The notes under the pieces: generated by a model
Database searches by the model: none
Told to the model about the DNA's origin: nothing
The model's input: the letters and a program-made list of their open reading frames with translations, nothing else
NCBI GenBank assembly: GCA_963781885.1
Contig: CAWAHW010000001.1
Span: 544,001 to 608,000, forward strand
Length of the DNA: 64,000 nt
Direction: 5' to 3'
Origin: an uncultured Spirochaetota bacterium
GTDB lineage: Bacteria; Spirochaetota; Spirochaetia; SZUA-6; Fen-1364
In this document: in pieces, positions 22,740-36,398 of the stretch
Layout of the letters: the number at the start of each line of letters is the position of its first letter
How positions within the stretch are numbered: position 1 is the stretch's first letter
Translations under genes and position numbers: made by a program

Positions 22740-24143
22740 TTATGCCTCCGATGCGTTCCGTTCGAGCGATGCGGTCGGCACCATGCCCCGATACGCGCGC
22801 AGGTACAAAGCCCCGCCGAGCACCACCACGAGGGAGAAGCCCATCATCAGGTTGCTGTAAGCAGATCCGGTGGATGCTGCGATACGCGGTAGCAACGCCA
22901 CGTTCAGCCACGTGCCCGCAAGGAGCCTGCCGACCACTGCGGTGCCGATTGCCCCCGACATGACGCCGACGAGATTGAAAAGACCCATGCCGACGCCCGT
23001 CTCGTGCTCGGGCAGCGTCTGGGAGACGCTGTTGATCATCGCCGTCTGGAAGAGCGCGAAGCCGATGTAGGTGGCGAGCAGCCCCGCCGCCACGACGAGC
23101 GACGAGACACTTTCCAGGAATGCCATCACGACGAAGCTCGTCGCCAGGAGCGCCAACCCCAGGGCGACCACGAAGCTGTTGCCTTTCCGGTCCGCCAGCC
23201 TGCCGCCAATGGGCCCGAATATCACGGAGCTGATCGCGCCGGGGAAAAGGATGAGCCCGATCTGGCTCGTGCCCAGGTGATGGACGTCGCTCAACATCAG
23301 CGGAACGAGGAAAAGCACGCCGATCACGACGAAAAAGAGGCAGAAACCGACGATCACGCCGTTGCGGAACCGGACGTTCGCAAAAAGTGACGGTGCAATG
23401 AACGGATCCGGCGCGCGCCGGATGCGAATGATGAAAAGGGCCAGCAGGACCACGAACGCCGCCAGGTAATACCAGGCGCTGAAGTTGAGATAGACCACGA
23501 TGGATCCGAGCGTGAGAGCAACCAGCGCGGCGCCGAGCAGGTCCACCTTTCCCTCCCGGCGCGGCTCGCGCGGCAGCTCCCGTGCAAGGAAGGGTATCGC
23601 GACCAGGAGGAGCAGCGGAATCAGGAAGAGGAAGGACCAATGCAGCTTCGCGGAGACGAAGCCGCCGATGACCGGCCCCAGCCCGATTGCAAGGGAAACC
23701 GTGGAGGTGATGATGCCGAAGACCCTGCCGCGCGCCTCCGGGGCAAAGTAGCGCGCCACCACGACGAAGATCAACGCCGGAATCGCCGAGCCGCCCATGC
23801 CCTGGATGGCCCTGGCGACCACCACGAGGGGATAGGAAGACTGCAGCGCGAATCCCATGACCGAGCCCACGAGGTAGAGGGTCACCCCGATCATGATGAG
23901 CCGCCGCAAGCTGTAGATGTCGGAGAGCTTTCCGTAGATGACCGAGCCGATGCCAAAGAAGACCATGAAGATCGTCATCATCCAGCTCACGCCGGCCGGG
24001 GTGAGGGAGAACTGGCGCGCGATCATGGGGGTGGAGACGTTGAAGACGGTCTCATTCAGGACCGCAAAGAATATGAGATAGATGATCCAGGGGACCAGGC
24101 GCTTGGGGTTCAAAAAATGCTCCTTTGCCGGAGAAAATAACAT
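22740..24143 (-). CDS. 14-TMS MFS efflux transporter, Tet(L)/Tet(K)-related DHA2 group
   Basis: FFAVLNETVFNVSTP, YGKLSDIY, ARAIQGMG, GLGPVIGG, GLILFPGA, GRLADRKG. Confidence 0.85.
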   Translation of the reverse strand: MLFSPAKEHFLNPKRLVPWIIYLIFFAVLNETVFNVSTPMIARQFSLTPAGVSWMMTIFMVFFGIGSVIYGKLSDIYSLRRLIMIGVTLYLVGSVMGFALQSSYPLVVVARAIQGMGGSAIPALIFVVVARYFAPEARGRVFGIITSTVSLAIGLGPVIGGFVSAKLHWSFLFLIPLLLLVAIPFLARELPREPRREGKVDLLGAALVALTLGSIVVYLNFSAWYYLAAFVVLLALFIIRIRRAPDPFIAPSLFANVRFRNGVIVGFCLFFVVIGVLFLVPLMLSDVHHLGTSQIGLILFPGAISSVIFGPIGGRLADRKGNSFVVALGLALLATSFVVMAFLESVSSLVVAAGLLATYIGFALFQTAMINSVSQTLPEHETGVGMGLFNLVGVMSGAIGTAVVGRLLAGTWLNVALLPRIAASTGSAYSNLMMGFSLVVVLGGALYLRAYRGMVPTASLERNASEA

Positions 24144-24371
24144 ATGGAATTTTGCATATACTTGGCAAATGGAAAGCCGGGAACTGCCGATGTATTTCTC
24201 TGTGGGGGAAAGTTTACCGTGCGGAAATAGGGCAGCCAGCTCCTGCTGCCACTCGTATTCCTTGACTCCGGCCGGGGCCGTTTGTAGCTTCTCTCACCGG
24301 GAGGGTACAGCCGTCGCCCTGGCGCGCCTCCTGGCCCTCGCCCGGACGTCGAGCGTTCGAGGAGGGTGGTG

Positions 24372-25271
24372 ATGGCAGCACATGCGTCCTGGAAGGGATT
24401 CCTGAAGCTCAGCCTCGTGTCGGTTCCCGTCAAGGCATACACGGCAACGGCCACCGGCAGCGACATCACGCTGCATCAGCTTCACGCGCAGACCCATACC
24501 CGCATCCAGTACAAGAAATTCGCCCCCGAGGTCGGCGAGGTATCGAGCGACCAGATCGTGAAGGGCTACGAATACGACAAGGGCCAGTACGTCATCATCG
24601 ACGAGGATGAGCTGGACAAGCTGCGCACGGAGAACGACAAGGCCATCCGCATCGACGGCTTCATCCCGCCCGACCAGTTGAGCACGGTCTATCTCGGCGG
24701 CAGGACCTACTTCCTGACCCCGGACGGCCCCGTGGGACAGAAGCCGTACAACCTCCTCATGAAAGGGATGGAAAAGGCGGGCCTCTGCGCCATCGCGGAA
24801 GTGGTCATTTCCCAGAAGGAGCAGGTCGTCATGGTGAGGCCCGTCGACGGGGTGCTCGCGATGACGGTGCTCAACCGCAAGGACGAGGTGAAGGCAGCCT
24901 CCGCGTTCAAGGACGAGATCACGGAGACGGAGGCCACGGAGGCGGAGAGATCGCTCGCCGATACCCTCATCCAGGCGTCGATCATCAAGGAGTTTGATTT
25001 CGGCCGCTACCACGACGTCTACAAGGAGAAGCTCACGAAGCTCATCCAGCTGAAGATTGAAGGCAAGGAGGTGGTCCAGGTGCGCGACCCCGAGGAGCCG
25101 AAGATCATCAACCTGATGGAGGCCCTCAAGCGCAGCGTGGAGGAAGCCCAGGCCGCGGGACGCACCGGTGGCGAGGAAAAGAAGAAGGCAAAGGCCGGCC
25201 TGAAGCAGACCGCCAGCGCCAAGCCTGCAAAGACGGTCACGGCTGCGCCGAAGAAGAGGAAGGTTGTCTAA
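24372..25271 (+). CDS. ku: Ku protein (NHEJ end-binding)
   Basis: SWKGFLKLSLVSVPVKAYTAT, RIQY, IVKGYEY, FDFGRYHDVYKEKL, INLMEALKRS and a basic C-terminal tail. Confidence 0.95.
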   Translation: MAAHASWKGFLKLSLVSVPVKAYTATATGSDITLHQLHAQTHTRIQYKKFAPEVGEVSSDQIVKGYEYDKGQYVIIDEDELDKLRTENDKAIRIDGFIPPDQLSTVYLGGRTYFLTPDGPVGQKPYNLLMKGMEKAGLCAIAEVVISQKEQVVMVRPVDGVLAMTVLNRKDEVKAASAFKDEITETEATEAERSLADTLIQASIIKEFDFGRYHDVYKEKLTKLIQLKIEGKEVVQVRDPEEPKIINLMEALKRSVEEAQAAGRTGGEEKKKAKAGLKQTASAKPAKTVTAAPKKRKVV

Positions 25272-26157
25272 GCACCTCCCGCGCCTCGTGCCGCCCATGC
25301 TGGCCGTGATGGGCCAGCCCTTCGATTCGGACACCCATTTCTTCGAGTTCAAGTGGGACGGCTACCGCGCCGTGGCGATGGTGGAGGACGGCGCCGTTCG
25401 CCTGGTGAGCAGGAAGGGCATCGACCTGACGGGTCGCTACCCGGCCCTTGCGCCGCTGGGCACGCTCCCCGCGGGGCTCGCGCTCGACGGGGAGATCGTC
25501 GCCTTTCGCAACGGCGTGCCGAGCTTCGAGCTGGTCGCGCACCACGATCGCGCGGCAACGGAGCCGCTGAAGTTCATTGCGTTCGACATCCTCTATCAAG
25601 CGTTCGAGCCGGTCATGGACCGGCCGTTCACGGAGCGCCGCGCGATGCTGGAGCGCGTGATCGCGGAGTCGCCACGCCCGCCGCTCGTTCTCTCGGAAGG
25701 CGTAGCGGCCACGGGAAAGGCCCTCTTCGAGAGGGCCTGCGTCCAGGGCCTCGAGGGCGTGGTGGCAAAACGGCTGGGGAGCACGTACGCCCCGGGCAAG
25801 AGGAATGGCGCCTGGGTCAAGATCAAGAGGCGTCTCAGCGTCCAGGTCGTCATCATCGGGTATATCGAAAAGGAAGGCCGCGATTTCCAGAGCCTCCTGG
25901 TGGCCTCCAACGGAATCCCGGGCGGCACGGGCGGACCGCTCCTCTACATCGGGAAGGTGGGGGGCGGGTTCACGGACGCAGTACGCGCGGAGCTGAACGC
26001 GCTCCTGCGGGAGCATCCCCGGGCAAAGCCCCTGGTGGCCTGTCCCGAGCGTGGCACATGGGTTGAGCCGGGCCTCTACTGCACGGTAAGCTTTGCAGAG
26101 ATGACCGGGGCCGGCATGCTTCGCGCTCCGGTCTTCGAGGGACTGATACACGCGTAA
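25264..26157 (+). CDS. Stand-alone ATP-dependent DNA ligase (LigD/LigC-type NTase+OB)
   Basis: Motif I EFKWDGYR, III LDGEIV, IIIa AFDIL, IV LEGVVAK, V WVKIK, OB-fold GKVGGGF..LRAPVF. Overlaps the ku stop. Confidence 0.92.
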   Translation: MSKHLPRLVPPMLAVMGQPFDSDTHFFEFKWDGYRAVAMVEDGAVRLVSRKGIDLTGRYPALAPLGTLPAGLALDGEIVAFRNGVPSFELVAHHDRAATEPLKFIAFDILYQAFEPVMDRPFTERRAMLERVIAESPRPPLVLSEGVAATGKALFERACVQGLEGVVAKRLGSTYAPGKRNGAWVKIKRRLSVQVVIIGYIEKEGRDFQSLLVASNGIPGGTGGPLLYIGKVGGGFTDAVRAELNALLREHPRAKPLVACPERGTWVEPGLYCTVSFAEMTGAGMLRAPVFEGLIHA

Positions 26158-26163
26158 GGACCG

Positions 26164-27354
26164 ATGGACACCACACCGTTGACGGGGGCAGAGGTCGCCC
26201 TGACAGGTCGTCTTCTCTCCATGACGCGCGCGCAGGCCGTGAAGCTCCTGCAGCAGGCGGGAGCGCGGCACGCGCGCGAGCCCGGCGCGTCCACCGCGCT
26301 GCTCGTGGCCGGGGAGGCCATCGGCAACCTCACCTCGGACGGCCGGATATCGCACAGCCTCGAGCTGTTCCGGCAGCTGAAGAGGCAGGGCAGCGCCATC
26401 CGCCTGGTGGAGGAGACGGAGTTCCTCCGCCTGCTGGGCGCGCAGGACTCGCTCGCCGACATCTCCCGGCTGTACACCGCTGAGCAGGTGAGCCGCATCG
26501 TGGAGGCGCCGCTTTCCGAGGTGCGCGCCTGGGTGCGCAAAGGCCTGCTCCAGCCGGCCCGGCAGCACAACCGGCTTGCCTGGTTCGAGTTCAAGAACAT
26601 CGTTCAGGCGCGCAACCTGAGCAGGCTCACCGCTTCAGGCGTACCGGCATCGCAGATCCACAGGAGCCTGTCGGAGATCGCGCGCTGGCTGCCCGACGGT
26701 GAGCGCATCATCGGCCGGCTGGAGGCCTACGCGCGCGGCCTGCGTGTGAGGCTTCCCGATGGCGGGCTCGCCGAGCCCAGCGGGCAGCGCCTCATGGATT
26801 TCCAGCGCAGCGGCAGGGGCGATGCGAGCCTCCAAGAGGTGAGGCGGGTATCGGTCTTTCCGTCCGAGGTTGCCGCGCCGCCGAAAGCCGGCACGCCTTC
26901 TGCCGCGGACTGGCGCGCTGCTGCCGAAGAGGCCGAGGAGCAAGGCGACCTCGGCGCGGCCGCGCTGGGCTATGCGCGGGCGGTTGCGGACGCACCCGAC
27001 GCGGAGACATTCTTCGACCTGGGCAATGTCCTCTACGAGCTGGGCAGGGAGGGGGAGGCGGCGGAGCGCTACTTGCAGGCCATCCAGCTCGAGCACGACT
27101 TCGCCGAGGCGTGGAACAACCTGGGCAACGCGCTCGTGGCGCTCCGCAAGCTGGAGGACGGCGTGCGCGCCTACGAGATGGCGCTTGCCCTGGAGCCCGG
27201 CTATCCCGACGCGCACTGCAATCTTGCCACCGTTCTGGAACGGCTGGGTCTCTCAGAGAAAGCCATGGCCCACCGGGGCGCCTGCCTGCGCGGGCTTCCT
27301 AGCGAAGCGCATCTCAGCCTGCTGCGCCAGCCGGCACGCGCTGACGAGGATTAG
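26164..27354 (+). CDS. BRCT + MerR-type HTH + TPR protein
   Basis: LigA-type BRCT (LTGAEVALTGRLLSMTRAQAVKLLQQAGA..LLVAGE..EETEFLRLL), MerR-like YTAEQVSRIV..VRAWVRKGLLQP, and TPRs FDLGNVLYELG / AWNNLGNAL / AHCNLA. Confidence 0.8.
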   Translation: MDTTPLTGAEVALTGRLLSMTRAQAVKLLQQAGARHAREPGASTALLVAGEAIGNLTSDGRISHSLELFRQLKRQGSAIRLVEETEFLRLLGAQDSLADISRLYTAEQVSRIVEAPLSEVRAWVRKGLLQPARQHNRLAWFEFKNIVQARNLSRLTASGVPASQIHRSLSEIARWLPDGERIIGRLEAYARGLRVRLPDGGLAEPSGQRLMDFQRSGRGDASLQEVRRVSVFPSEVAAPPKAGTPSAADWRAAAEEAEEQGDLGAAALGYARAVADAPDAETFFDLGNVLYELGREGEAAERYLQAIQLEHDFAEAWNNLGNALVALRKLEDGVRAYEMALALEPGYPDAHCNLATVLERLGLSEKAMAHRGACLRGLPSEAHLSLLRQPARADED

Positions 27355-27695
27355 CTGAAGTCTTCTTGAATGGGAGGACATGGCCGATACCACGCGGGAA
27401 GAGCTTTGCAGTGGCAACGGGGTCTGACTCCTGGTGGATCCTTGCTGGGCCCACTTGAGAGGGGGTACAAACCACGTCAAAGCCCGCCACGAGCGTCCTT
27501 ACGAAGACGAGCAAAGCTTTTCGGAAGTGGGGTACAACAGTCTTCTCGCTGAAACACTAGAACGATTTGTTTGACGTGAATATGAGTGAATAAGTAATAT
27601 TAATTGAGCACAGGGACTCTTCCAGCAGCGCACGGCTCGCCGTCGCAGCCAGGAAAAGCTCTTTAGTCTTTTCCGCGAGGGGGTAAGAGGTTTTT

Positions 27696-28913
27696 ATGAA
27701 AAGGATTTTATTCTTAGGTGCTCTGTTGCTCGTATTGGGTCTGGCGGCTTGTAAAACGCCGTCGCCGAGTGGAACTTCCTACTCCTACTGGCAAGCATAT
27801 TCGAGCGCAGTTGATTCCAGCGGCAACTACTACGTCGCCGGAACGCTCGCAACCTCGGCTCAGGCGTCGAACTCCACAAATACCCAAGGCATCCCGGTCT
27901 ACTGGGAAAACGGCGAAGCAGCACCGCAGCCACTGCCGATGGGCACAAATGGGGATAGCACGGCCAACAACTTTGGTTTTGCAGAGCGCGTTGTGACCCA
28001 AGGGACTCATGTTTATATCGTAGGCGGAGTGAATCACACCACGACCAGTGGCGTGGCCAACTCTCAAGCGGTCTACTGGAAAGACGGCGCGATAAACGTA
28101 CTATCCCTGAGCGGCGGCAACACTTGGGGGTGGGCAGACTGCATTGCCGTTGATGGCTCAGGGAACGTTTATGTTCTAGGTGAAGAGGGCAATAGCTCTA
28201 CCTATTACGCAATCTGGAAGAATGGCACTGTCCTTGCTTCCGCCGCAGCGAACCCATACTTCAACAATCAAGGGATCGCCGTGGACTCCAGCGGCAACAT
28301 ATGGGTCATTGGTCTCTATGGAACTTCGAACAACACCGCCGCAGCCGCATACGGTGAGTACAGTTCTTCCGGAAGCTTGCTAGCCAATGGCACGCCGTCA
28401 GGCGCCACAAACCTTACCGGCATTGTCGCGGACGCTTCCGGACACGTGTACATGTCAGGAACAACTGGAGGATCGCCTTTCTCCTATTCGACAGGCTATA
28501 GCAACAATTGGACACCAACCGTCTGGAAAAACTTGGTCGCTACATCTCAGGCCCTCACGGTGGGAGCCACAACCTACACCTACGGGTTTGCAAGGTCCCT
28601 CGCTCTTGACTCCTCGGCAAATATCTACGCCAGCGGAGTTGTGTTCAGTCCAGGCCCCACCGTACCTGTGTACTGGAAGTTGAACACCACCGCGACGGAG
28701 CTGAATGTGACAGGCTTCAGCTCTAATGCGGCTTGGCAACAATCAAGCATCGCTGTTGACGGATCGGGGAATGTGGATGCCGAAATCGAGACTACCCCTG
28801 GTACGGCGACTCAGACGAACAATTTCTTTGTCGCTCCTACGGCCTTGATCAATTGGATGGGAGCTTCAAACGCGCCAACGACCCTGATGAGCAATCCCGT
28901 GACTGTGCAATAG
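27696..28913 (+). CDS. Lipoprotein with beta-propeller (SBBP-like) repeats
   Basis: Lipobox LAAC. Repeated IAVDxSGNxY and xYWKxG units. Ser/Thr/Asn-rich. Confidence 0.75.
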   Translation: MKRILFLGALLLVLGLAACKTPSPSGTSYSYWQAYSSAVDSSGNYYVAGTLATSAQASNSTNTQGIPVYWENGEAAPQPLPMGTNGDSTANNFGFAERVVTQGTHVYIVGGVNHTTTSGVANSQAVYWKDGAINVLSLSGGNTWGWADCIAVDGSGNVYVLGEEGNSSTYYAIWKNGTVLASAAANPYFNNQGIAVDSSGNIWVIGLYGTSNNTAAAAYGEYSSSGSLLANGTPSGATNLTGIVADASGHVYMSGTTGGSPFSYSTGYSNNWTPTVWKNLVATSQALTVGATTYTYGFARSLALDSSANIYASGVVFSPGPTVPVYWKLNTTATELNVTGFSSNAAWQQSSIAVDGSGNVDAEIETTPGTATQTNNFFVAPTALINWMGASNAPTTLMSNPVTVQ

Positions 28914-29070: not shown

Positions 29071-29916
29071 CTAATTGCGTGCGAGGTGTCTGGCAGCCAT
29101 CACATCGGTCATGAGAAGGTAGGAACCATCACTTGCAACGCTGAATGTCCTGCTGCTTCCCGAGTTATTGTATAGCGTGGAAGTGCCTGCGGTGAAAGTA
29201 GTCCCCGAGGTCCATGTGTACGGAGTATTCACGTATTGCAGGTAATTATAGGTGAGGGTTTTCCCCTTGGCACTGTCGAGGCTCGTCACACTGTTCGGCA
29301 CGATCGCGCTCACCGTGTAGACACTGTTGGACTTGCTGCCATTGGTTGCCGTGCCAGTTGCGTCGTAGCTTACAGATTCCGAGGTGTACGTGACAGTCGA
29401 GAAATCGGGAGCGATGACAATAGTCCAGGTATACGTGTTTGACGTACCATCCCAGTAGGTTGTGTTTTGACTTTCAACGTAATTGCCGCCGCTTCCCGGG
29501 AGAGCTTCATACTCGTTGGAAGAACCGAATACTTCAGTGTATGAATATGTCCTGGTGGAAGTGGATGGCGAGCTGAGCATGACGTAGCTTCCACCAATGC
29601 CGCCATTCCATATCTGGGTGTAGGTGATCGTCATCATTCGCGTGCCGGTGTTGTAGGAGTACGTGCCTTTGTCGCCACCGGATTGCTCCCACGTGGAACT
29701 TGTGGCATCCCAACTCTTACTGATGTCTTCGTATGTGCCATCGGCCGCGTATGTCTCCGTATAGGAGCCATAAAAGGTATACGTCACATCCTTTGTCATG
29801 TGCCCATTGCTGTCAAAAGCAACCTCAGTATCGCTGTATGACCAGATCGGGCTGCACGCCGTCAGAAGCAACGCCCCAGCGGCCATCGCGATCAGAAGGA
29901 AGATGAGTTTCTTCAT
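29071..29916 (-). CDS. Hypothetical Ser/Thr/Tyr-rich lipoprotein, paralog 2
   Basis: MKKLIFLLIAMAAGALLLTAC lipobox, AAGGAG RBS. Confidence 0.8.
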   Translation of the reverse strand: MKKLIFLLIAMAAGALLLTACSPIWSYSDTEVAFDSNGHMTKDVTYTFYGSYTETYAADGTYEDISKSWDATSSTWEQSGGDKGTYSYNTGTRMMTITYTQIWNGGIGGSYVMLSSPSTSTRTYSYTEVFGSSNEYEALPGSGGNYVESQNTTYWDGTSNTYTWTIVIAPDFSTVTYTSESVSYDATGTATNGSKSNSVYTVSAIVPNSVTSLDSAKGKTLTYNYLQYVNTPYTWTSGTTFTAGTSTLYNNSGSSRTFSVASDGSYLLMTDVMAARHLARN

Positions 29917-30888
29917 GCCGACTCTCCTTGAATATTTACCAAAAGCATTTTTACGGGCTCTCACGTTGCCGGGACAACGGAGAGGCTATTTGATTCCAAG
30001 GTGCTTCGGCACATTCATATTGGGATAGACGATGTAGGAACCGTCGCTTGCAATGCTAAATGTGTCGCTTTCCGAGTTATTGTATGTCGTGGAAGCGCCT
30101 GCGGTGAAGTCAGTCCCCGAGGTCCATGTGGACGGAGTGTCGACGTAACTCAGGTAATTATAGGTAAGGGTTTTCCCCTTGGCACTGTCGAGGCTCGTCA
30201 CTCCGCTTGGGAAGATCGCGCTCACCGTGTAGACGTCGCTGGACTTGCTGCCACCGTTTGGCGCGCCAGATGCGTCGTAGCTTACAGATTCCGAGGTGTA
30301 CGTGACAGTCGAGAAATCGGAGGGGATGACAATGGTCCAGGTATATGTGTTTGACGTACCATTCCAATAGGTCCTGTTTTGACTTTCAATGTAGTTGCCG
30401 CCGCTCCCGGGGAGAGCTTCATACTTGTTGGAGGAACTGAATACTTCAGTGTATGAATATGTCTTGCGGGAAGTGGACAATGAGGTGAGCGTGACGTAGC
30501 TTCCACCAATGCCGCCATTCCATATCTGGGTGTAGGTGATCGTCATCATTCGTGTGCCGGTATTGTAGGAGTACGTGCCTTTGTCGCCACCGGATTGCTC
30601 CCACGCGGAGTCAATGGCATTCCAACTCGTTCTGATGTCTTCATATGTGCCATCGGCCGAGAAAGTCTCCGTGTAAGAGCCACGAACGATATACGTGACA
30701 TCCTTTGTCATGTGCCCATTGCCGTCAAAAGCAACCTCGGTATCGCTGTATGACCAGATCGGACTGCATGCCGTCAGAAGCAACGCCCCTGCCGCCGTCA
30801 CGATCAGAAGGAAGATGAGTTTCTTCATGCCGCCACTCCTTGAACATTTACCAAAAATCTTTTTGAGAGCTCACTTCGCCGGGACAAT
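29120..30888. repeat. Tandem duplication, unit ~912 bp (gene plus ~60 bp upstream leader)
   Basis: Long identical DNA blocks in both genes. The upstream leaders also align (TCCTTGAA.ATTTACCAAAA...GCCGGGACAA at ~29925-29978 and ~30837-30888). Confidence 0.85.
29986..30828 (-). CDS. Hypothetical Ser/Thr/Tyr-rich lipoprotein, paralog 1
   Basis: MKKLIFLLIVTAAGALLLTAC lipobox. Collinear and highly similar to 29071-29916. Confidence 0.8.
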   Translation of the reverse strand: MKKLIFLLIVTAAGALLLTACSPIWSYSDTEVAFDGNGHMTKDVTYIVRGSYTETFSADGTYEDIRTSWNAIDSAWEQSGGDKGTYSYNTGTRMMTITYTQIWNGGIGGSYVTLTSLSTSRKTYSYTEVFSSSNKYEALPGSGGNYIESQNRTYWNGTSNTYTWTIVIPSDFSTVTYTSESVSYDASGAPNGGSKSSDVYTVSAIFPSGVTSLDSAKGKTLTYNYLSYVDTPSTWTSGTDFTAGASTTYNNSESDTFSIASDGSYIVYPNMNVPKHLGIK

Positions 30889-30928: not shown

Positions 30929-33900
30929 TCAACATGGTCCTGGTGTCGCGATCTCTTTCGCCATCTCACGGTAGCGACACAGGCCATTTGCCCACCGCAT
31001 CTGCTCGGGCGTGCTGCATTCCGGCTCCAGGAGGCGGCGCGCCGCCACAAGGATGCATACGCACTGGGCGCGGCTGGTGGCCACGTTCAACCGGTTTGGA
31101 TTGAAGAGGAAACCCATGCCGCGAGGCGCGTCGATGGCGGAGGAGCTTGCCATCGAATAGATGACCACGGGAGCTTCCTGGCCCTGGAACTTGTCCACGG
31201 TTCCCACGCGGAGCGCGGGAAGACGGGCCGAAAGCGCCGCCACCTGCGCGTTGTAGGGCGCCACGACTAGTATGTCGGATGCGTGCAGCCTGCGCGCCGT
31301 GCCGTGCGAATCGGTCCACGTCACGTCGGGTGAGAGAAGGCTCTCCGCAATGGCCGCGATTGCCGCCACCTCCTCCGGAGAGCTGTTCTGATTGCCTTCG
31401 TGGTCCACGGGCACGTAGAAAAGGCCGCTGCCGGCAAAGGGCGTATCACCGTTGATGGCCTGTCGCTCCAGCCCCGCGCGGGAACGGAGCCGGCCTTCGT
31501 AGAAAAGCTCGGAGGTGAACGCGCATATGCGGGGGTGCAGCCTCCAGGTCTCGTCGAGGAAAAGCCCCGCCTCATCGGCAAGCGTCTTCCGCCCCTCCAG
31601 CACGTGCACAAGAGCCGCCACCTCCGCACCTTCGGGATGCGCGCCGCGCTGGGGCTGCTCGAGCTGCTGCGGGTCGCCCAGGAGAACGAGGTTGCGCGCG
31701 GACCTCGCAGCGGCGAGCGCGAACGCCAGCGACATCTGTCCTGCCTCATCGATGAAGAGGTAATCCACCGATTCGATCATGTCGTCCCGGGCCCAGAACC
31801 AGCAGGTTCCGCCGACCACCTTGCCCTGGCCGAGCCCTGCCGCTGCCTTTTCGTTCTTGTCCGTCTCTTCGACGCCCGGCGTCTTTTCCACGCCCCGCTT
31901 GCTCACCTTGTGAATGGCAGCCACGGGCGCACCTGCGGGGGCCGCGCGGACGACCTGCTCCAGGAAGTGCCTGATCACCTTGTGACTGACAGCCGTGACC
32001 CCAATGCGCTTTCCGGCGGTCGCGAGGGCGACGATCATCCGCGCGCCCGTGTACGTCTTTCCCGTCCCGGGCGGCCCCTGCACCGGCAGCACCCCGTTGT
32101 CCAGGTCCCGGGCAAGGCGAATGGCCGCATCCACCAGGTTCTCCCCCGACCGCCGGAGCGCGCCCTGCGCGGGTGTGCGAAGCCGCGGCTTCCTCTTCAG
32201 GAGCAGGTCCCGGGCGGCGCGATAAGGCCCGTTGCCGTTCACGCCGCGGCGCGCGCTGGACACGCCGAGCTCCAGCAGCGCCTTGTCCACGGGCCGCGGC
32301 GGCACCCTTTCGTTCACCATGACGGCAAAGGGATGCCGGTCCGCGGTTGACGGCCTCCGTTCGATGTCGATCGTGCCGTCTGCAAGATCCAGCGCGCTCA
32401 CCTTCCCGATGACGCCGCCGCCGATCTCGTAAAGCTCGTCTCCGTCGCCGAAGGCAGCCTCCTGCGCGGGAAAGGCGTAGCGGTGCACGGGTGATCGCGC
32501 GCTGCCGCCGACGGCCTGGAGAAAGCGCAGACCGGAAATGGCCTTTCGTTCCTCCATGAGCTCCTCGTGATCGAGGCCGTGGATCCGGAAGAACTCCCAC
32601 CACGCGCACTTGTCCTCGCGGCGGAAATATTCGAGCTGGTGCGCAAGGAGCCATTGCCCCCGATGCTCCTCTCCCCATTCTTCGCGATCGTCGGGAAGCG
32701 CGCCGGTCAATTCCTCAAAAGCGGCCTTCACCTCCCCGGCCTGCTCCGCCACCGCCTCGCTTGCCTCACCGGTCTTCTCTTCAGGCCGGGGCACGCGCCG
32801 TCCTTTTGCCGCCCATTCCTCCCGGCGCTCCTCCAGCCATGCCTGGAGCGCGGCGGTTGCCCGGCAGTCATCGCAGTTGTAGGACTCCACCGCGTCGCGG
32901 TCGGAGGCGAAAATCTCCAGGTCCGCCGTGCCGGGTGCAAGCTCCAGCACGCGCGCGATCCTGCGGAGCGCCTGGCCTGCCGCGCGAAGCTCCAGGGACC
33001 GGTGAAATGCAAATGCCGGCTCGAGCGACTTCAGCGAATAGCTTTCCACGCTGACCCGCATGCCTTGCCGCGTCACGGCGAGCAGGTCCACGAACTTTTC
33101 CGCGCGCAGCAGACGGTCCAGCTCCTCCTCCCGTATGCCGTGCCGGCCGATCATCCTTTTCACCGCGCCGGGCTCGTACGGCGAGAAGTGGTAGATGTGC
33201 ATGCCGGGGTGCCCCCGCCATCTGTCCATGACAAAATCCATGATCTCTTCGAGGGCCTTTTTTTCTTCCGCCATGGTGAAGGCCCAGAGCGGCCGATAGG
33301 ACAGGACGCCGTCCGGTGCGACGAATGCCACGCCGAGCAGGTATTCCAGGCCTGTCTCCAGGGCAAAGGGATCCGACTCGATATCGAACCAGATGTCACC
33401 CGGATCCGGCGCGGGCAGGAGCGCCAGCCCCTTGCCAGGCTCGATCGGCAGGAGCTCGTGGAGGATGCGGCCCGCTTCCCGTCCGGCAAGCTGGATGCGC
33501 GCCTGGCCGTGCACGCGCGCGAATGCCTCATCGCTTCCCCGCGCCGGCTTGCGGCGAAACGGCGCCGGCTCCCGCGCGAGCTTCTCCAGCGTGCCGATGC
33601 CTTGCTGCTCGAGCTCGGCAATATGGAGCGGACGGATGCCGGCAACGAGGCAGAGGTGATCGTCGGCGTGCCGGCGCGCATCGCACTCCTTCCACCACCG
33701 GCAGACGTCGCAATGCGCCACGGGGTAGGGGTAGGTGGCTGCCGGTGCGGCGGCCACGGTCTGCTCCAGTCTTCGCTTGACCAGGCGGCAGTACGCGCTG
33801 TAGTCGCTGAAGCGAAAGCTTTCCCGGACAAAATCCTGGCCCGGCTTTATCACGTGCATGTGCTCGGGAGGCAGCCCCTGCAGGTATCCCACAAGCTCCG

Positions 33901-34351
33901 AGTAGAGGCAGAGCTGCAGCACCGTACCCGCGCGTGTCTCCTGCGCCAGCTTTGTATCGGCAACCTCGTAGGACCAGTCACCCAGGTTGCTCGGCCTTGG
34001 CACGCGCAGCAGGAGGTCCGCGCGGCCGACCCATCGTCCCTCGCCAAGCTGGGCCTGCACGATGGCTCCAGCCCCCGCGGCCATGGCGTTCCGGGTCCTT
34101 TCAAGCGACGTTGCGACGGCGTCCGCGGGGAGCTCCACGACCTCGACGCCGCTTTTTTTCAGATGCTCCACGTACGCCCGTTCATGGATGGCGCCCCGTT
34201 GCCGCAAGAGCTCCACGCTTGGATCCATCCACGACGGGGCCGCGATGCGCCGCTCTGCAACGGCGCGGTCGAGCTGCGTGAGGTGACGGCAGGCCAGATG
34301 GTTGGCGATGTCGGTCGCGGACAGAAAGAGCTCTCCGCCCTCCACGTGCAT
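30929..34351 (-). CDS. TM0106-family RecB-like nuclease + RNase H-fold exonuclease + SF1B (Dna2/UPF1-like) helicase
   Basis: LSATDIANHLAC, GRADLL..YEVADTKLA, QLCLYS, HCDVCRWWKEC, WFDIESDP..YNCDDC, QGPPGTGKT, IDEAGQ, GDPQQL, TVDKFQGQEA, NRLNVATSRA. RBS AGGAG before 34351. Confidence 0.88.
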   Translation of the reverse strand: MHVEGGELFLSATDIANHLACRHLTQLDRAVAERRIAAPSWMDPSVELLRQRGAIHERAYVEHLKKSGVEVVELPADAVATSLERTRNAMAAGAGAIVQAQLGEGRWVGRADLLLRVPRPSNLGDWSYEVADTKLAQETRAGTVLQLCLYSELVGYLQGLPPEHMHVIKPGQDFVRESFRFSDYSAYCRLVKRRLEQTVAAAPAATYPYPVAHCDVCRWWKECDARRHADDHLCLVAGIRPLHIAELEQQGIGTLEKLAREPAPFRRKPARGSDEAFARVHGQARIQLAGREAGRILHELLPIEPGKGLALLPAPDPGDIWFDIESDPFALETGLEYLLGVAFVAPDGVLSYRPLWAFTMAEEKKALEEIMDFVMDRWRGHPGMHIYHFSPYEPGAVKRMIGRHGIREEELDRLLRAEKFVDLLAVTRQGMRVSVESYSLKSLEPAFAFHRSLELRAAGQALRRIARVLELAPGTADLEIFASDRDAVESYNCDDCRATAALQAWLEERREEWAAKGRRVPRPEEKTGEASEAVAEQAGEVKAAFEELTGALPDDREEWGEEHRGQWLLAHQLEYFRREDKCAWWEFFRIHGLDHEELMEERKAISGLRFLQAVGGSARSPVHRYAFPAQEAAFGDGDELYEIGGGVIGKVSALDLADGTIDIERRPSTADRHPFAVMVNERVPPRPVDKALLELGVSSARRGVNGNGPYRAARDLLLKRKPRLRTPAQGALRRSGENLVDAAIRLARDLDNGVLPVQGPPGTGKTYTGARMIVALATAGKRIGVTAVSHKVIRHFLEQVVRAAPAGAPVAAIHKVSKRGVEKTPGVEETDKNEKAAAGLGQGKVVGGTCWFWARDDMIESVDYLFIDEAGQMSLAFALAAARSARNLVLLGDPQQLEQPQRGAHPEGAEVAALVHVLEGRKTLADEAGLFLDETWRLHPRICAFTSELFYEGRLRSRAGLERQAINGDTPFAGSGLFYVPVDHEGNQNSSPEEVAAIAAIAESLLSPDVTWTDSHGTARRLHASDILVVAPYNAQVAALSARLPALRVGTVDKFQGQEAPVVIYSMASSSAIDAPRGMGFLFNPNRLNVATSRAQCVCILVAARRLLEPECSTPEQMRWANGLCRYREMAKEIATPGPC

Positions 34352-34364
34352 GGCCTGTCTCCTT

Positions 34365-36398
34365 CTACGACTGCAGGAGCTTTTCCAGCGCCTTGATGCC
34401 CCGACCGAGGTCCTGGGGGTTTGCCTGCGCGGTGCGGAAGAGGTCTCCCGTCCGCTCGATGCGCGCGGCGGCGTTTGCAAGCGTGAAATCCGCGACGTGC
34501 AGCTCCCCTTCCAGCTCGTCCCATGCCAGCGGCATGGAAACCGAGGCAGCCTCAACGGGCCGCACGACGTAAGGCGGCACCACGGTCTGTTCGCGCCGGT
34601 TCTGCAGGAAATCGATATAGACGCGGCCGGCCCGGCGGCCCACGACGCGCTCCACCGTGGCGATGTCCCCGTGATCGCGCACGACCATGCGGGCAATCGT
34701 CTCGCAGAACATCCTGCTCTGATCGTAGGTGAAGCCGGGCGTGAGCGGGATGCACACGTGCAGCCCCGACGAGCCCGAGGTCTTCAGGTATGGCTCGATG
34801 CCGATGCCGCGGAGCAGCTTGCCGACCACCCGCGCAATCTTCACGACGTCCGTGAAAGGCGCCTCCTTGGGATCGAGGTCCAGGATGGCCCAGTCCGGCG
34901 ATTCGAGGCTGTCCGTGCGTGACAGCCAGGGGTGCAGGTCGATGCTGCCCGCGTTGACGAGCGTGAGGAGGGCCTTGCGGTCGTTGCAGACCGCGTACAG
35001 GGTCGGCTCCTCACCATCCCGCGCAACGTCCACCGTTTCGCACTGGTCCAGCAGCTCCGGCGGGAGCTGCTTCTGATAAAAGGATTTACCGCGAATCCCG
35101 TCCGGCCACCGGTAGAGGTGCAGCGGGCGATCCTCCAGGTACGGCAGCAGCCAGTTCGCGACCCGGTCGTAGTAGCGCGCGAGATCCCCTTTCGTGTAGC
35201 CCTGTTCCGGCCAGTAGACCTTGCGCGGATGCGTGATGGCGACGCCCGTCGGCGCGTCCTTTTTCTGGGACCGCTTCTTTGCCGGCGTCTTTGGCTTCAT
35301 GCCCGGCACCACGCGCACCCTCTGCCAATCCTCCGATACTCCAGAACGATAGGGACTGTCCGCGCGCTTGGCGATGATGCCCGGCAGACCCGATTGCGCC
35401 GCGGCGTCCGCAAAAGCCAGGCCGTGCTCTGCCACCGGGTCGACCGTCAGGACGCGGCCGGATTCCGGCACGAGGGACCGGAGCACCGCCTTGCGCTCGC
35501 GTAGGGGCAGGCGCGTGAGGTCCCACTCTTCTGCATAGAGGATGTCGAAAAGGTAGAGCACCGCGTGCGCGCCACCGGATCGCAGCTCTTCTTCCAGCGC
35601 CGCCTCGGTGGGAACGCCGCGCGCGTCCATTGCCACGATGACCCCGTCCAGGAGCGCCGTGCCGGCGCGCACCGCGGCCAGCCCTGCGGCAAGCGCAGGC
35701 AGCCGGGGCGCAAGATCTTCCTTCTTCGTGCGGAGGCTGACCGTGGAGTCCTGGACGCGCGCCAGGACGCGCCGGCCGGCAAAGAGAGGCTCGAAGAGCC
35801 ACGCGGGGTCGTCAAACGCCCCCGCGCGGTCCGCCGGCTCCATGCGCGCGCGGCCGCGGGGCGCGGCCTTCTGCCGCGCAAGGCTCATGTCCGCGGCGCC
35901 GAAGAGGTCGCTGCCGGATCCGGCGTAGCGGTCGCGCGCCTTGAAGAGCAGCCAGTTCCTGCCGTCGCCGGTCTTCGTGCGCACCATGTGCCATTCCCCG
36001 CGCAGGTGCCGGCCCTTCAGCTCAAGCTTCAGCTCGCCCTTTTCCAGCGCCGCGGCGATCGTCGGTGATTTGCGCACCTCGTACACCCCGGCGTCCCAGA
36101 TGCGCATCGTGCCGGCGCCGTACTGGCCCTTGGGGATGGGACCTTCGAAGTCCCGGTACAGAAGCGGGTGGTCCTCCGTGCGCACGGCGAGCCTCTTGTC
36201 CCCGGGCGCATAGGAGAAGCCCTTCGGCACGGCCCAGCAGGCAAGTACGCCATTTGCCTGGATGCGCAGGTCATAGTGCAGGTTGCGCGCCTCGTGGCGA
36301 TGGACGACGAATGCGTTTCCTTTGGCGCCGCGTTTCCCCGGCCGCGGCTCGGGGGTCTTCCTGAAGTCGCGCTTGCCGCGATAATCATCCATCGCCAT
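34365..36398 (-). CDS. ligD: LigD-like protein: phosphoesterase + degenerate ligase + primase-polymerase
   Basis: PE domain (HRHEARNLHYDLR, WAVPKG, TEDHP..Y..FEG.IP.GQYGAG) and Pol domain (DLDP, KTSGSSGLHV, YIDFLQN). The central ligase-like domain lacks KxDG. Confidence 0.9.
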   Translation of the reverse strand: MAMDDYRGKRDFRKTPEPRPGKRGAKGNAFVVHRHEARNLHYDLRIQANGVLACWAVPKGFSYAPGDKRLAVRTEDHPLLYRDFEGPIPKGQYGAGTMRIWDAGVYEVRKSPTIAAALEKGELKLELKGRHLRGEWHMVRTKTGDGRNWLLFKARDRYAGSGSDLFGAADMSLARQKAAPRGRARMEPADRAGAFDDPAWLFEPLFAGRRVLARVQDSTVSLRTKKEDLAPRLPALAAGLAAVRAGTALLDGVIVAMDARGVPTEAALEEELRSGGAHAVLYLFDILYAEEWDLTRLPLRERKAVLRSLVPESGRVLTVDPVAEHGLAFADAAAQSGLPGIIAKRADSPYRSGVSEDWQRVRVVPGMKPKTPAKKRSQKKDAPTGVAITHPRKVYWPEQGYTKGDLARYYDRVANWLLPYLEDRPLHLYRWPDGIRGKSFYQKQLPPELLDQCETVDVARDGEEPTLYAVCNDRKALLTLVNAGSIDLHPWLSRTDSLESPDWAILDLDPKEAPFTDVVKIARVVGKLLRGIGIEPYLKTSGSSGLHVCIPLTPGFTYDQSRMFCETIARMVVRDHGDIATVERVVGRRAGRVYIDFLQNRREQTVVPPYVVRPVEAASVSMPLAWDELEGELHVADFTLANAAARIERTGDLFRTAQANPQDLGRGIKALEKLLQS

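Follow-up and report, generated by a model that had tools for sequence, protein, structure and literature searches.

In the parts of the end-joining papers that were searched, bacterial non-homologous end joining (NHEJ) figures as Ku plus LigD. Here we describe a third gene, found in 64,000 nt of DNA from an uncultured Spirochaetota bacterium (hereafter the window; GenBank assembly GCA_963781885.1, contig CAWAHW010000001.1, positions 544,001–608,000), where it follows the genes for Ku and a small ATP-dependent DNA ligase. It encodes a protein with a BRCT domain, a MerR-type winged helix-turn-helix (HTH), a conserved central stretch, and tetratricopeptide repeats (TPRs). An initial annotation of the window had called this architecture uncharacterised, and our full-text literature search agrees in that, among the papers listed, it found none on a BRCT-MerR-TPR protein or a Ku-linked TPR protein. 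As far as their text was covered, 'TPR', 'MerR', and 'BRCT' had 0 occurrences each in a study of Sinorhizobium meliloti end joining (PMC6379672), terms for such a third gene had 0 occurrences in a study of Ku evolution (PMC11936186), and a study of PolX and end-joining neighbourhoods (PMC9226535) held nothing on such a protein. The link of the gene to bacterial end joining is well supported.

The initial annotation had placed the open reading frame as the third gene after ku and the ligase gene, and this arrangement was confirmed. The ligase gene overlaps ku by 8 nt, the gap between the ligase stop codon and the ATG of the third gene is 6 nt, and all three genes are on the + strand; the BRCT-HTH-TPR gene is the last gene of a tightly packed ku-ligase operon. 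Judging by its sequence, the first gene is certainly ku. The stand-alone ligase scored 223.8 bits against TIGR02779 (end-joining type), slightly below the cut-off of 227.75. Its motif I (KWDG) is intact, and K30, D32, and G33 were invariant in 38 orthologue sequences.

A word-index search yielded at least 120 relatives of the BRCT-HTH-TPR protein, mostly full-length and 55–88% identical, from metagenome bins of Spirochaetia, and when 1.84 billion representatives were searched with a profile of amino acids (aa) 1–216, at least 271 clusters, most of them 370–430 aa long, matched at E ≤ 1e-30. The relatives listed bear only generic names, e.g., 'tetratricopeptide repeat protein' and 'DNA-binding transcriptional MerR regulator'. 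The family is large and has no name of its own. We compared its distribution with that of Ku in 61 genomes of the order to which the window belongs; these genomes are related to one another, and no statistical test is claimed. The gene was present in 28 genomes and Ku in 26: both were found in 26, Ku alone in none, neither in 33, and the gene alone in two (G011, in which a ligase fragment is left, and G012). Leaving the genome of the window aside, 27 genomes of the order carry the gene, and in 26 of them the ligase gene lies immediately upstream of it. In three genomes, G009 (L031/L037), G018 (L028), and G034 (L027/L036), the gene matches fell into two to three pieces in different frames, which are frameshifts or assembly errors.

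We also examined 49 loci from a scan of Spirochaetota and Planctomycetota species genomes, a set that partly overlaps the 61 genomes and is not independent of them. Either ku or an intact ligase gene was located directly upstream of the gene in 46 of these loci. A ligase gene on the same strand ended within 251 bp upstream in 43 loci and 907 bp upstream in one, ku itself was directly upstream in two (L082 and L084), and the ligase was reduced to a fragment in one (L054). The distance from ku to the ligase gene was at most 260 bp in 34 loci and 0.9–4.9 kb in six (L042, L045, L049, L062, L063, and L069), and ku was outside the flank in four. Where ku is displaced from the pair formed by the ligase gene and the BRCT-HTH-TPR gene, this pair must have its own promoter. 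In the two of these six loci that were examined, the genes between ku and ligase are unrelated: L049 has a methionine sulfoxide reductase gene in this position, and L045 has genes for an extracytoplasmic function sigma factor, an alpha/beta hydrolase, a DUF3224 protein, a MarR-like HTH protein, and a BNR-repeat protein.

More distant homologues were found when aa 1–216 were used as the query against plasmids, in Burkholderia and Paraburkholderia (Burkholderiaceae); a direct tblastn search of plasmids with the full window protein returned TPR pieces only. The family profile aligned to the Paraburkholderia protein over aa 106–371, central motif included (probability 99.9%, E 2.2e-33), and with this protein as the query, full-length homologues were obtained from 41 plasmid records of Burkholderiaceae and Variovorax. 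No Sinorhizobium record was among the plasmid matches listed. These betaproteobacterial homologues are 244–314 aa in length and carry the HTH, the central motif, and the TPRs without a BRCT domain. In all 10 loci examined out of the 41, the homologue followed a gene with the annotation 'Ku protein' at a distance of −4 to +60 nt, while the placement of LigD varied (upstream, divergent, downstream, or outside the flank). The hosts with a BRCT-less homologue behind ku include the cultured and non-pathogenic soil bacteria Cupriavidus necator N-1, where the pair is on plasmid pBB2, and Paraburkholderia terrae. Adjacency to ku or the ligase gene is kept down to ca. 29–40% identity in three phyla while the remaining neighbourhood changes, and Ku is the near-constant neighbour of the family across these phyla. 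The initial annotation had asked what fraction of homologues lies next to ku or ligD; ku or an intact ligase gene was the neighbour in 46 of the 49 Spirochaetota and Planctomycetota loci, and ku in 10 of the 10 betaproteobacterial loci examined.

Forms without a BRCT domain are likewise found after the stand-alone ligase gene (G056, G059, and L085). Since such forms are found both there and behind ku, the core of the protein is HTH, central motif, and TPR, and the BRCT domain is an add-on. The initial annotation had proposed an NHEJ accessory factor that lends a BRCT domain in trans to a minimal ligase. Its first part agrees with the conserved membership of the gene in the ku-ligase cluster. 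The second part is not general, because BRCT-less forms occur behind the stand-alone ligase and behind ku in Betaproteobacteria with full LigD, and because BRCT-bearing forms occur without a stand-alone ligase (L082 and L084).

To assign the N-terminal domain, we used profile searches and an AlphaFold model. In NCBIfam, the BRCT end of a DnaQ-BRCT protein aligned with aa 2–90 (E 3.9e-7), and the BRCT domain of LigA with aa 3–55 (E 6.3e-5). A profile built from 22 N-terminal domains of the family in related loci matched residues 596–670 of Escherichia coli LigA (E 1.6e-7), the BRCT domain of human RFC1 (E 2.7e-5), and further LigA BRCT domains. Pfam BRCT was detected at E ≤ 0.01 in 18 of these 22 domains; the domain of the window protein itself scored 17.5 bits, below the cut-off of 21.3, and the whole protein gave no BRCT match in Pfam at E ≤ 0.1. 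The model of aa 1–98 (mean predicted local distance difference test [pLDDT] 79.6) has the beta-alpha-beta-beta-alpha-beta-alpha order of the BRCT fold. When this model was compared with the PDB using Foldseek, BRCT or BRCT-like domains were exclusively found among the matches listed; RFC1 ranked first (E 3.5e-5, template modelling score 0.66), followed by LigA, RFC1 in clamp-loader/DNA complexes, and PARP1, and the BRCT domains of XRCC1 and Lig IV appeared further down. By its modelled fold, the N-terminal domain is a BRCT domain of the LigA, RFC1, and PARP1 kind, whose single BRCT domains bind DNA; this is in line with the LigA-like BRCT domain of the initial annotation. Designer pentatricopeptide proteins came out at the top of sequence searches of the PDB; aa 53–92 (26320–26439), which form one helical hairpin of the BRCT domain, resemble the pentatricopeptide repeat consensus. 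These matches are sums of weak ones, in which each stretch has E ≥ 8, and were rejected as an artefact because the fold search yields BRCT domains only.

The BRCT domain of yeast Rfc1 is described (PMC9359705) as holding a 5′ phosphate through T166, G167, R174, and K209 and as favouring duplexes whose 5′ end is recessed and phosphorylated. In the window protein, T14, G15, and R22 occur at the spacing of Rfc1 T166, G167, and R174, without a counterpart of K209, and G15 is invariant in the family alignment. The domain has an insertion of ca. 14 residues before the second BRCT helix, and the block of aa 51–60 has a pLDDT of 56.

The full-length model had a pLDDT of 82 and a predicted template modelling score of 0.78. 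Pfam MerR_1 matched aa 104–170 with E 9.2e-7 and a score of 29.3 bits, above its cut-off of 21.6, and in the model this region has, besides the helix-turn-helix, a beta wing and two more helices. The C-terminal part forms four helical hairpins at aa ca. 247–376 and a capping helix, up to aa 388. Several Pfam TPR families matched above their cut-offs, the best with E 4.9e-17, and in Foldseek the TPR part superposed on four-repeat consensus TPR proteins with a root-mean-square deviation of 1.1–1.7 Å. The MerR-like winged HTH and the three to four TPRs that had been annotated initially were thus both recovered, the latter as four repeats with a capping helix. What the initial annotation missed is a stretch between them, at aa ca. 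175–215, which ranks with the most strongly conserved segments of the family. Its pattern is WLP..., a short helix, and R-x-R-x-x-D-G...G-Q-x-L-x-D-F; W175, R196, G200, G207, and Q208 are invariant or nearly so. Most of this stretch is of low confidence in the model (aa 193–215, and up to aa 241 including the linker).

Other searches with the protein gave less. A fold search with the full-length model returned TPR proteins only and is uninformative on the HTH and the central motif. An Atlas search with aa 95–245 returned MerR-family clusters, every score being below 0.9, so that they are leads only. No fused forms, i.e., proteins of 694–2000 aa matching aa 1–216, were found at E ≤ 0.001, a null that counts as weak evidence. 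In complex prediction, the ligase and the BRCT-HTH-TPR protein scored 0.00 in both runs, which had no controls and carry no weight on either side of the question of binding. The only PADLOC match to the protein was a weak one to its HTH (mad1, E 2.8e-5), and nothing points to a defence system.

The initial annotation had regarded the locus as minimal. It is less so: a second end-joining gene, which encodes a LigD-like protein, lies further downstream on the opposite strand. The protein matched Pfam LigD_N (E 2.8e-39), DNA_ligase_A_M (E 4.1e-12), and LigD_Prim-Pol (E 3.6e-82), and scored 245 bits against TIGR02778. However, its motif I has no lysine, and there is no room for an OB domain. The motif-I lysine was likewise missing in 24 of 24 alignable related loci that have a stand-alone ligase. 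In contrast, L082 and L084, which are without the stand-alone ligase, encode LigD with an intact E-I-K-x-D-G motif and a full ligase domain. The residues present indicate that the ligase domain of the LigD-like protein is catalytically dead and that the active ligase is the separate small protein. In many related loci, the LigD-like homologue is convergent and located just past the end of the BRCT-HTH-TPR gene. This division between an active small ligase and a LigD-like protein with a presumably dead ligase domain may explain the need for a scaffold.

We favour the reading that the protein is a break-site accessory or scaffold factor, which would sit on DNA at the break and hold a partner via its TPRs or central motif; we give this reading a probability of about 0.5. 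The gene would encode an accessory subunit of one cassette type, made up of ku, the stand-alone ligase gene, the gene itself, and the convergent gene with phosphoesterase, apparently dead ligase, and polymerase domains. Its product would act at the DNA break and not at a promoter. The winged HTH, together with the BRCT domain where present, would hold duplex DNA near a 5′-phosphorylated end, and a protein partner, with Ku as the likeliest candidate and the ligase or the polymerase protein as further ones, would be bound by the TPRs and/or the central motif. As the outcome, the assembly that joins the ends would be stabilised or ordered. A bolder form of this proposal, which we advance tentatively, is that the protein may be, in this cassette type, a third core subunit of bacterial end joining, which is generally taught as a system of two proteins. 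In that form it would be a non-catalytic scaffold in which the BRCT domain and winged HTH read the 5′-phosphorylated end while the TPRs and central motif tether Ku, perhaps via its tail peptide, and the split ligase and polymerase enzymes; it would be a functional prokaryotic counterpart of the XRCC1- or XRCC4-type scaffolds.

The region upstream of ku bears on the choice between this reading and a regulatory one. The promoter-like hexamers TTGACT and TAGCTT recur at the same spacing upstream of ku in related loci. A consensus promoter scanner did not list the element, as TAGCTT matches TATAAT at only three of six positions. Just after the −10 hexamer is a conserved GGGAGGG, and the promoter is followed by a leader of ca. 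75 nt (24262–24365 with the promoter), in which CCTCC could pair with either the GGGAGGG element or the ribosome-binding site. An Rfam search of 23900–27800 at E ≤ 1 gave no match.

If the protein were instead a transcription regulator, the target of its HTH would be an operator close to the ku promoter, DNA ends or a partner protein would be sensed by the BRCT domain and/or TPRs, and breaks would thereby switch the operon. The initial annotation had likewise offered a damage-sensing regulator of the locus as its alternative, which is the weaker reading. We regard regulation, the main rival reading, as rather unlikely, even though the MerR_1 match lies above the Pfam cut-off, the Atlas leads are MerR-family clusters, one homologue is annotated as a MerR family regulator, regulators are commonly encoded beside their targets, and the strict co-occurrence with ku fits a dedicated regulator equally well as an accessory factor. 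MerR regulators dimerise through a long C-terminal coiled-coil helix, and MerR-activated promoters have spacers of 19–20 nt. Neither was found here. In the model, the long helix is not present: the helix after the HTH spans only aa 179–191 (13 residues) and is followed by the low-confidence conserved stretch and a variable linker. The spacer of the conserved ku promoter is 17 nt. No palindrome was common to 38 ku upstream regions, in that the best inverted repeat occurred in two of the 38, no more than in shuffles; this test, which used exact matches only and looked upstream of ku only, is a weak one and to that extent tells against our own reading. The accessory reading is favoured over the regulator because of these three points, the short HTH helix, the 17-nt spacer, and the lack of a shared palindrome upstream of ku. 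Furthermore, the gene is the last of a packed operon and neither divergent nor leading, it stays with the ligase gene and not with the ku promoter where unrelated genes part the two, and a BRCT domain of the DNA-end type and TPRs would be unusual sensor modules of a MerR regulator.

A different role would be one exerted on Ku rather than in the joining reaction, as a loader, unloader, chaperone, or inhibitor that times Ku rings on DNA without direct ligase contact. Ku is the near-constant neighbour in three phyla, whereas the ligase or LigD varies in position or is outside the flank. In Spirochaetota and Planctomycetota, the linked Ku proteins (L038–L086, and 25170–25268 in the window) have in common the tail motif K-[QM]-A-P-S-[AV]-K as well as a basic end, KKKK-x-G. 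A peptide of this kind could be read by TPRs. Five Ku proteins from other Spirochaetota, which do not carry the gene, end in short tails that lack the motif. However, the tails of the linked betaproteobacterial Ku proteins differ and do not keep the motif, and the comparison is small, based on a handful of mutually related Ku proteins. In the clade of the window, moreover, the gene is packed against the ligase gene and stays with it when ku is displaced. Such a Ku-directed role seems improbable. Least probable, and by a wide measure hard to believe, is that the gene is a passenger of unrelated function on a mobile ku cassette. Two Planctomycetota genomes do keep the gene without Ku in unrelated surroundings, and many betaproteobacterial copies are on large plasmids. 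Against this stand the adjacency kept to ca. 29–40% identity in three phyla while other neighbours change, the absence of any Ku-positive genome without the gene among 26 in the order, and the fit of both DNA-binding domains to a DNA-repair setting.

The proposal of an accessory factor at the break also has observations against it. Transcription factors are by far the commonest setting of a MerR-type HTH, and 'MerR family transcriptional regulator' is the RefSeq name of one homologue. The BRCT domain, which is missing in some lineages, cannot be essential to the core function. Within this domain, nothing corresponds to the lysine of the RFC1 site, there being no lysine before the invariant T44; T14 is replaced by alanine in one clade and, as single exceptions, by alanine in L042 and serine in L046; and R22 is substituted in some family sequences. 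As for the neighbourhood, neither ku nor the ligase gene was located within 6 kb of the gene in two of the 49 loci (L068 and L072, both Planctomycetota), where the neighbours are unrelated (radical SAM, sulfatase, and Tex), and Ku was not found in four genomes carrying the gene (those of L068, L072, L054, and L044). Additionally, the gene was found in none of 300 sampled genomes of the phylum outside the order, seven of which have Ku. In five loci of gene-less Spirochaetota Ku that we examined, Ku was only ca. 30% identical, and LigD with a ligase domain was directly beside ku in four; the fifth (L100), with a short flank, showed phosphoesterase and polymerase matches only. Since the gene is absent from these other Ku lineages of the phylum, it belongs to one cassette type and not to end joining generally.

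Table 1 Features of the ku-ligase region in the window (positions are those of the 64,000-nt window).
Feature	Position	Strand	Basis
ku (301 aa)	24366..25271	+	Pfam Ku E 1.9e-44; TIGR02772 E 1.4e-75, 254 bits (cut-off 150)
Stand-alone ATP-dependent DNA ligase gene (297 aa; nucleotidyltransferase and OB only)	25264..26157	+	Pfam DNA_ligase_A_M E 1.4e-29, DNA_ligase_A_C E 1e-16
BRCT / MerR-HTH / motif / TPR gene (396 aa, ATG start)	26164..27354	+	Open reading frame list and domain searches
BRCT domain, LigA / RFC1 / PARP1 single-BRCT kind (aa 10–93)	26191..26442	+	NCBIfam, family profile, model, Foldseek
MerR-type winged helix-turn-helix (aa 103–173)	26470..26682	+	Pfam MerR_1 and model
Conserved central stretch (aa 175–215)	26686..26808	+	Near-invariant alignment columns
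Four TPRs and capping helix (aa 247–388)	26902..27327	+	Pfam TPR families, model, Foldseek
Promoter-like element upstream of ku: TTGACT 24262–24267, 17-nt spacer, TAGCTT 24285–24290	24262..24290	+	Sequence reading
LigD-like gene (677 aa): 3′-phosphoesterase / ligase nucleotidyltransferase / primase-polymerase	34365..36398	−	Pfam, TIGR02778
Helicase-nuclease-like gene (1255 aa)	30929..34696	−	Pfam AAA_11, AAA_12, RNase_H_2

In the window, the BRCT-HTH-TPR gene and the LigD-like gene are separated by a low-GC island and a helicase-nuclease gene (Table 1). The latter encodes superfamily-1 helicase domains (AAA_11 and AAA_12) and an RNase_H_2-like nuclease domain, and PADLOC found similarity to the helicase parts of MkoA/MkoC and DpdJ. 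It separates the two end-joining genes in the window, and homologues occupy the same position in L039–L046, L049, and L080; this gene is a candidate member of the end-joining system. The island, at ca. 27.5–30.9 kb, has a GC content of 0.52–0.59 compared with 0.64–0.70 in its surroundings, and contains a gene for a beta-propeller-repeat, lipoprotein-like protein (27696–28913) and two paralogous genes with lipoprotein-like N-termini (29071–29964 and 29986–30828, both on the − strand). The island has the look of an insertion, separating genes that lie side by side in relatives.

For a whole class of cassettes, the picture of Ku plus LigD would change with an uncharacterised third gene that is conserved in three phyla. 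The gene may have a bearing, too, on genome editing with bacterial Ku/ligase pairs as helpers.

Compared with the two-component systems of Ku and LigD described in Mycobacterium, Bacillus, Pseudomonas, and Sinorhizobium, the locus likewise encodes Ku, an ATP-dependent ligase whose motif I is intact, a phosphoesterase, and a primase-polymerase. It differs in that the ligase stands alone, the LigD-like protein is without the catalytic lysine and an OB domain, and a third gene is conserved. The BRCT domain of the third protein is most similar to the single BRCT domains of LigA, the RFC large subunit (Rfc1/p140), and PARP1, with the same fold order, the best profile and fold matches, and a Thr-Gly pair with Arg eight residues later. 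Here, however, the domain is N-terminal to a winged HTH and TPRs instead of being part of a ligase or clamp loader. Unlike that of Rfc1, it has no lysine at the phosphate site, has an insertion of ca. 14 residues, and is absent from part of the family.

MerR regulators have the same winged HTH with a wing and two further helices. They differ from the window protein by their long antiparallel coiled-coil helix, which its model lacks; in addition, BRCT-bearing forms of the family have the HTH in an internal position, the C-terminus consists of TPRs and not of an effector pocket, and neither a promoter with a 19–20-nt spacer nor a shared palindrome was found upstream of ku. A MerR-like HTH without the dimerisation helix is also a feature of some small architectural proteins, among them BldC and excisionases. 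XRCC1 and Lig IV-XRCC4 can be compared by analogy only, as non-catalytic assemblies of BRCT and protein-binding modules that are encoded or recruited with a ligase. Their domain make-up is different, and there is no sequence kinship outside the BRCT domain.

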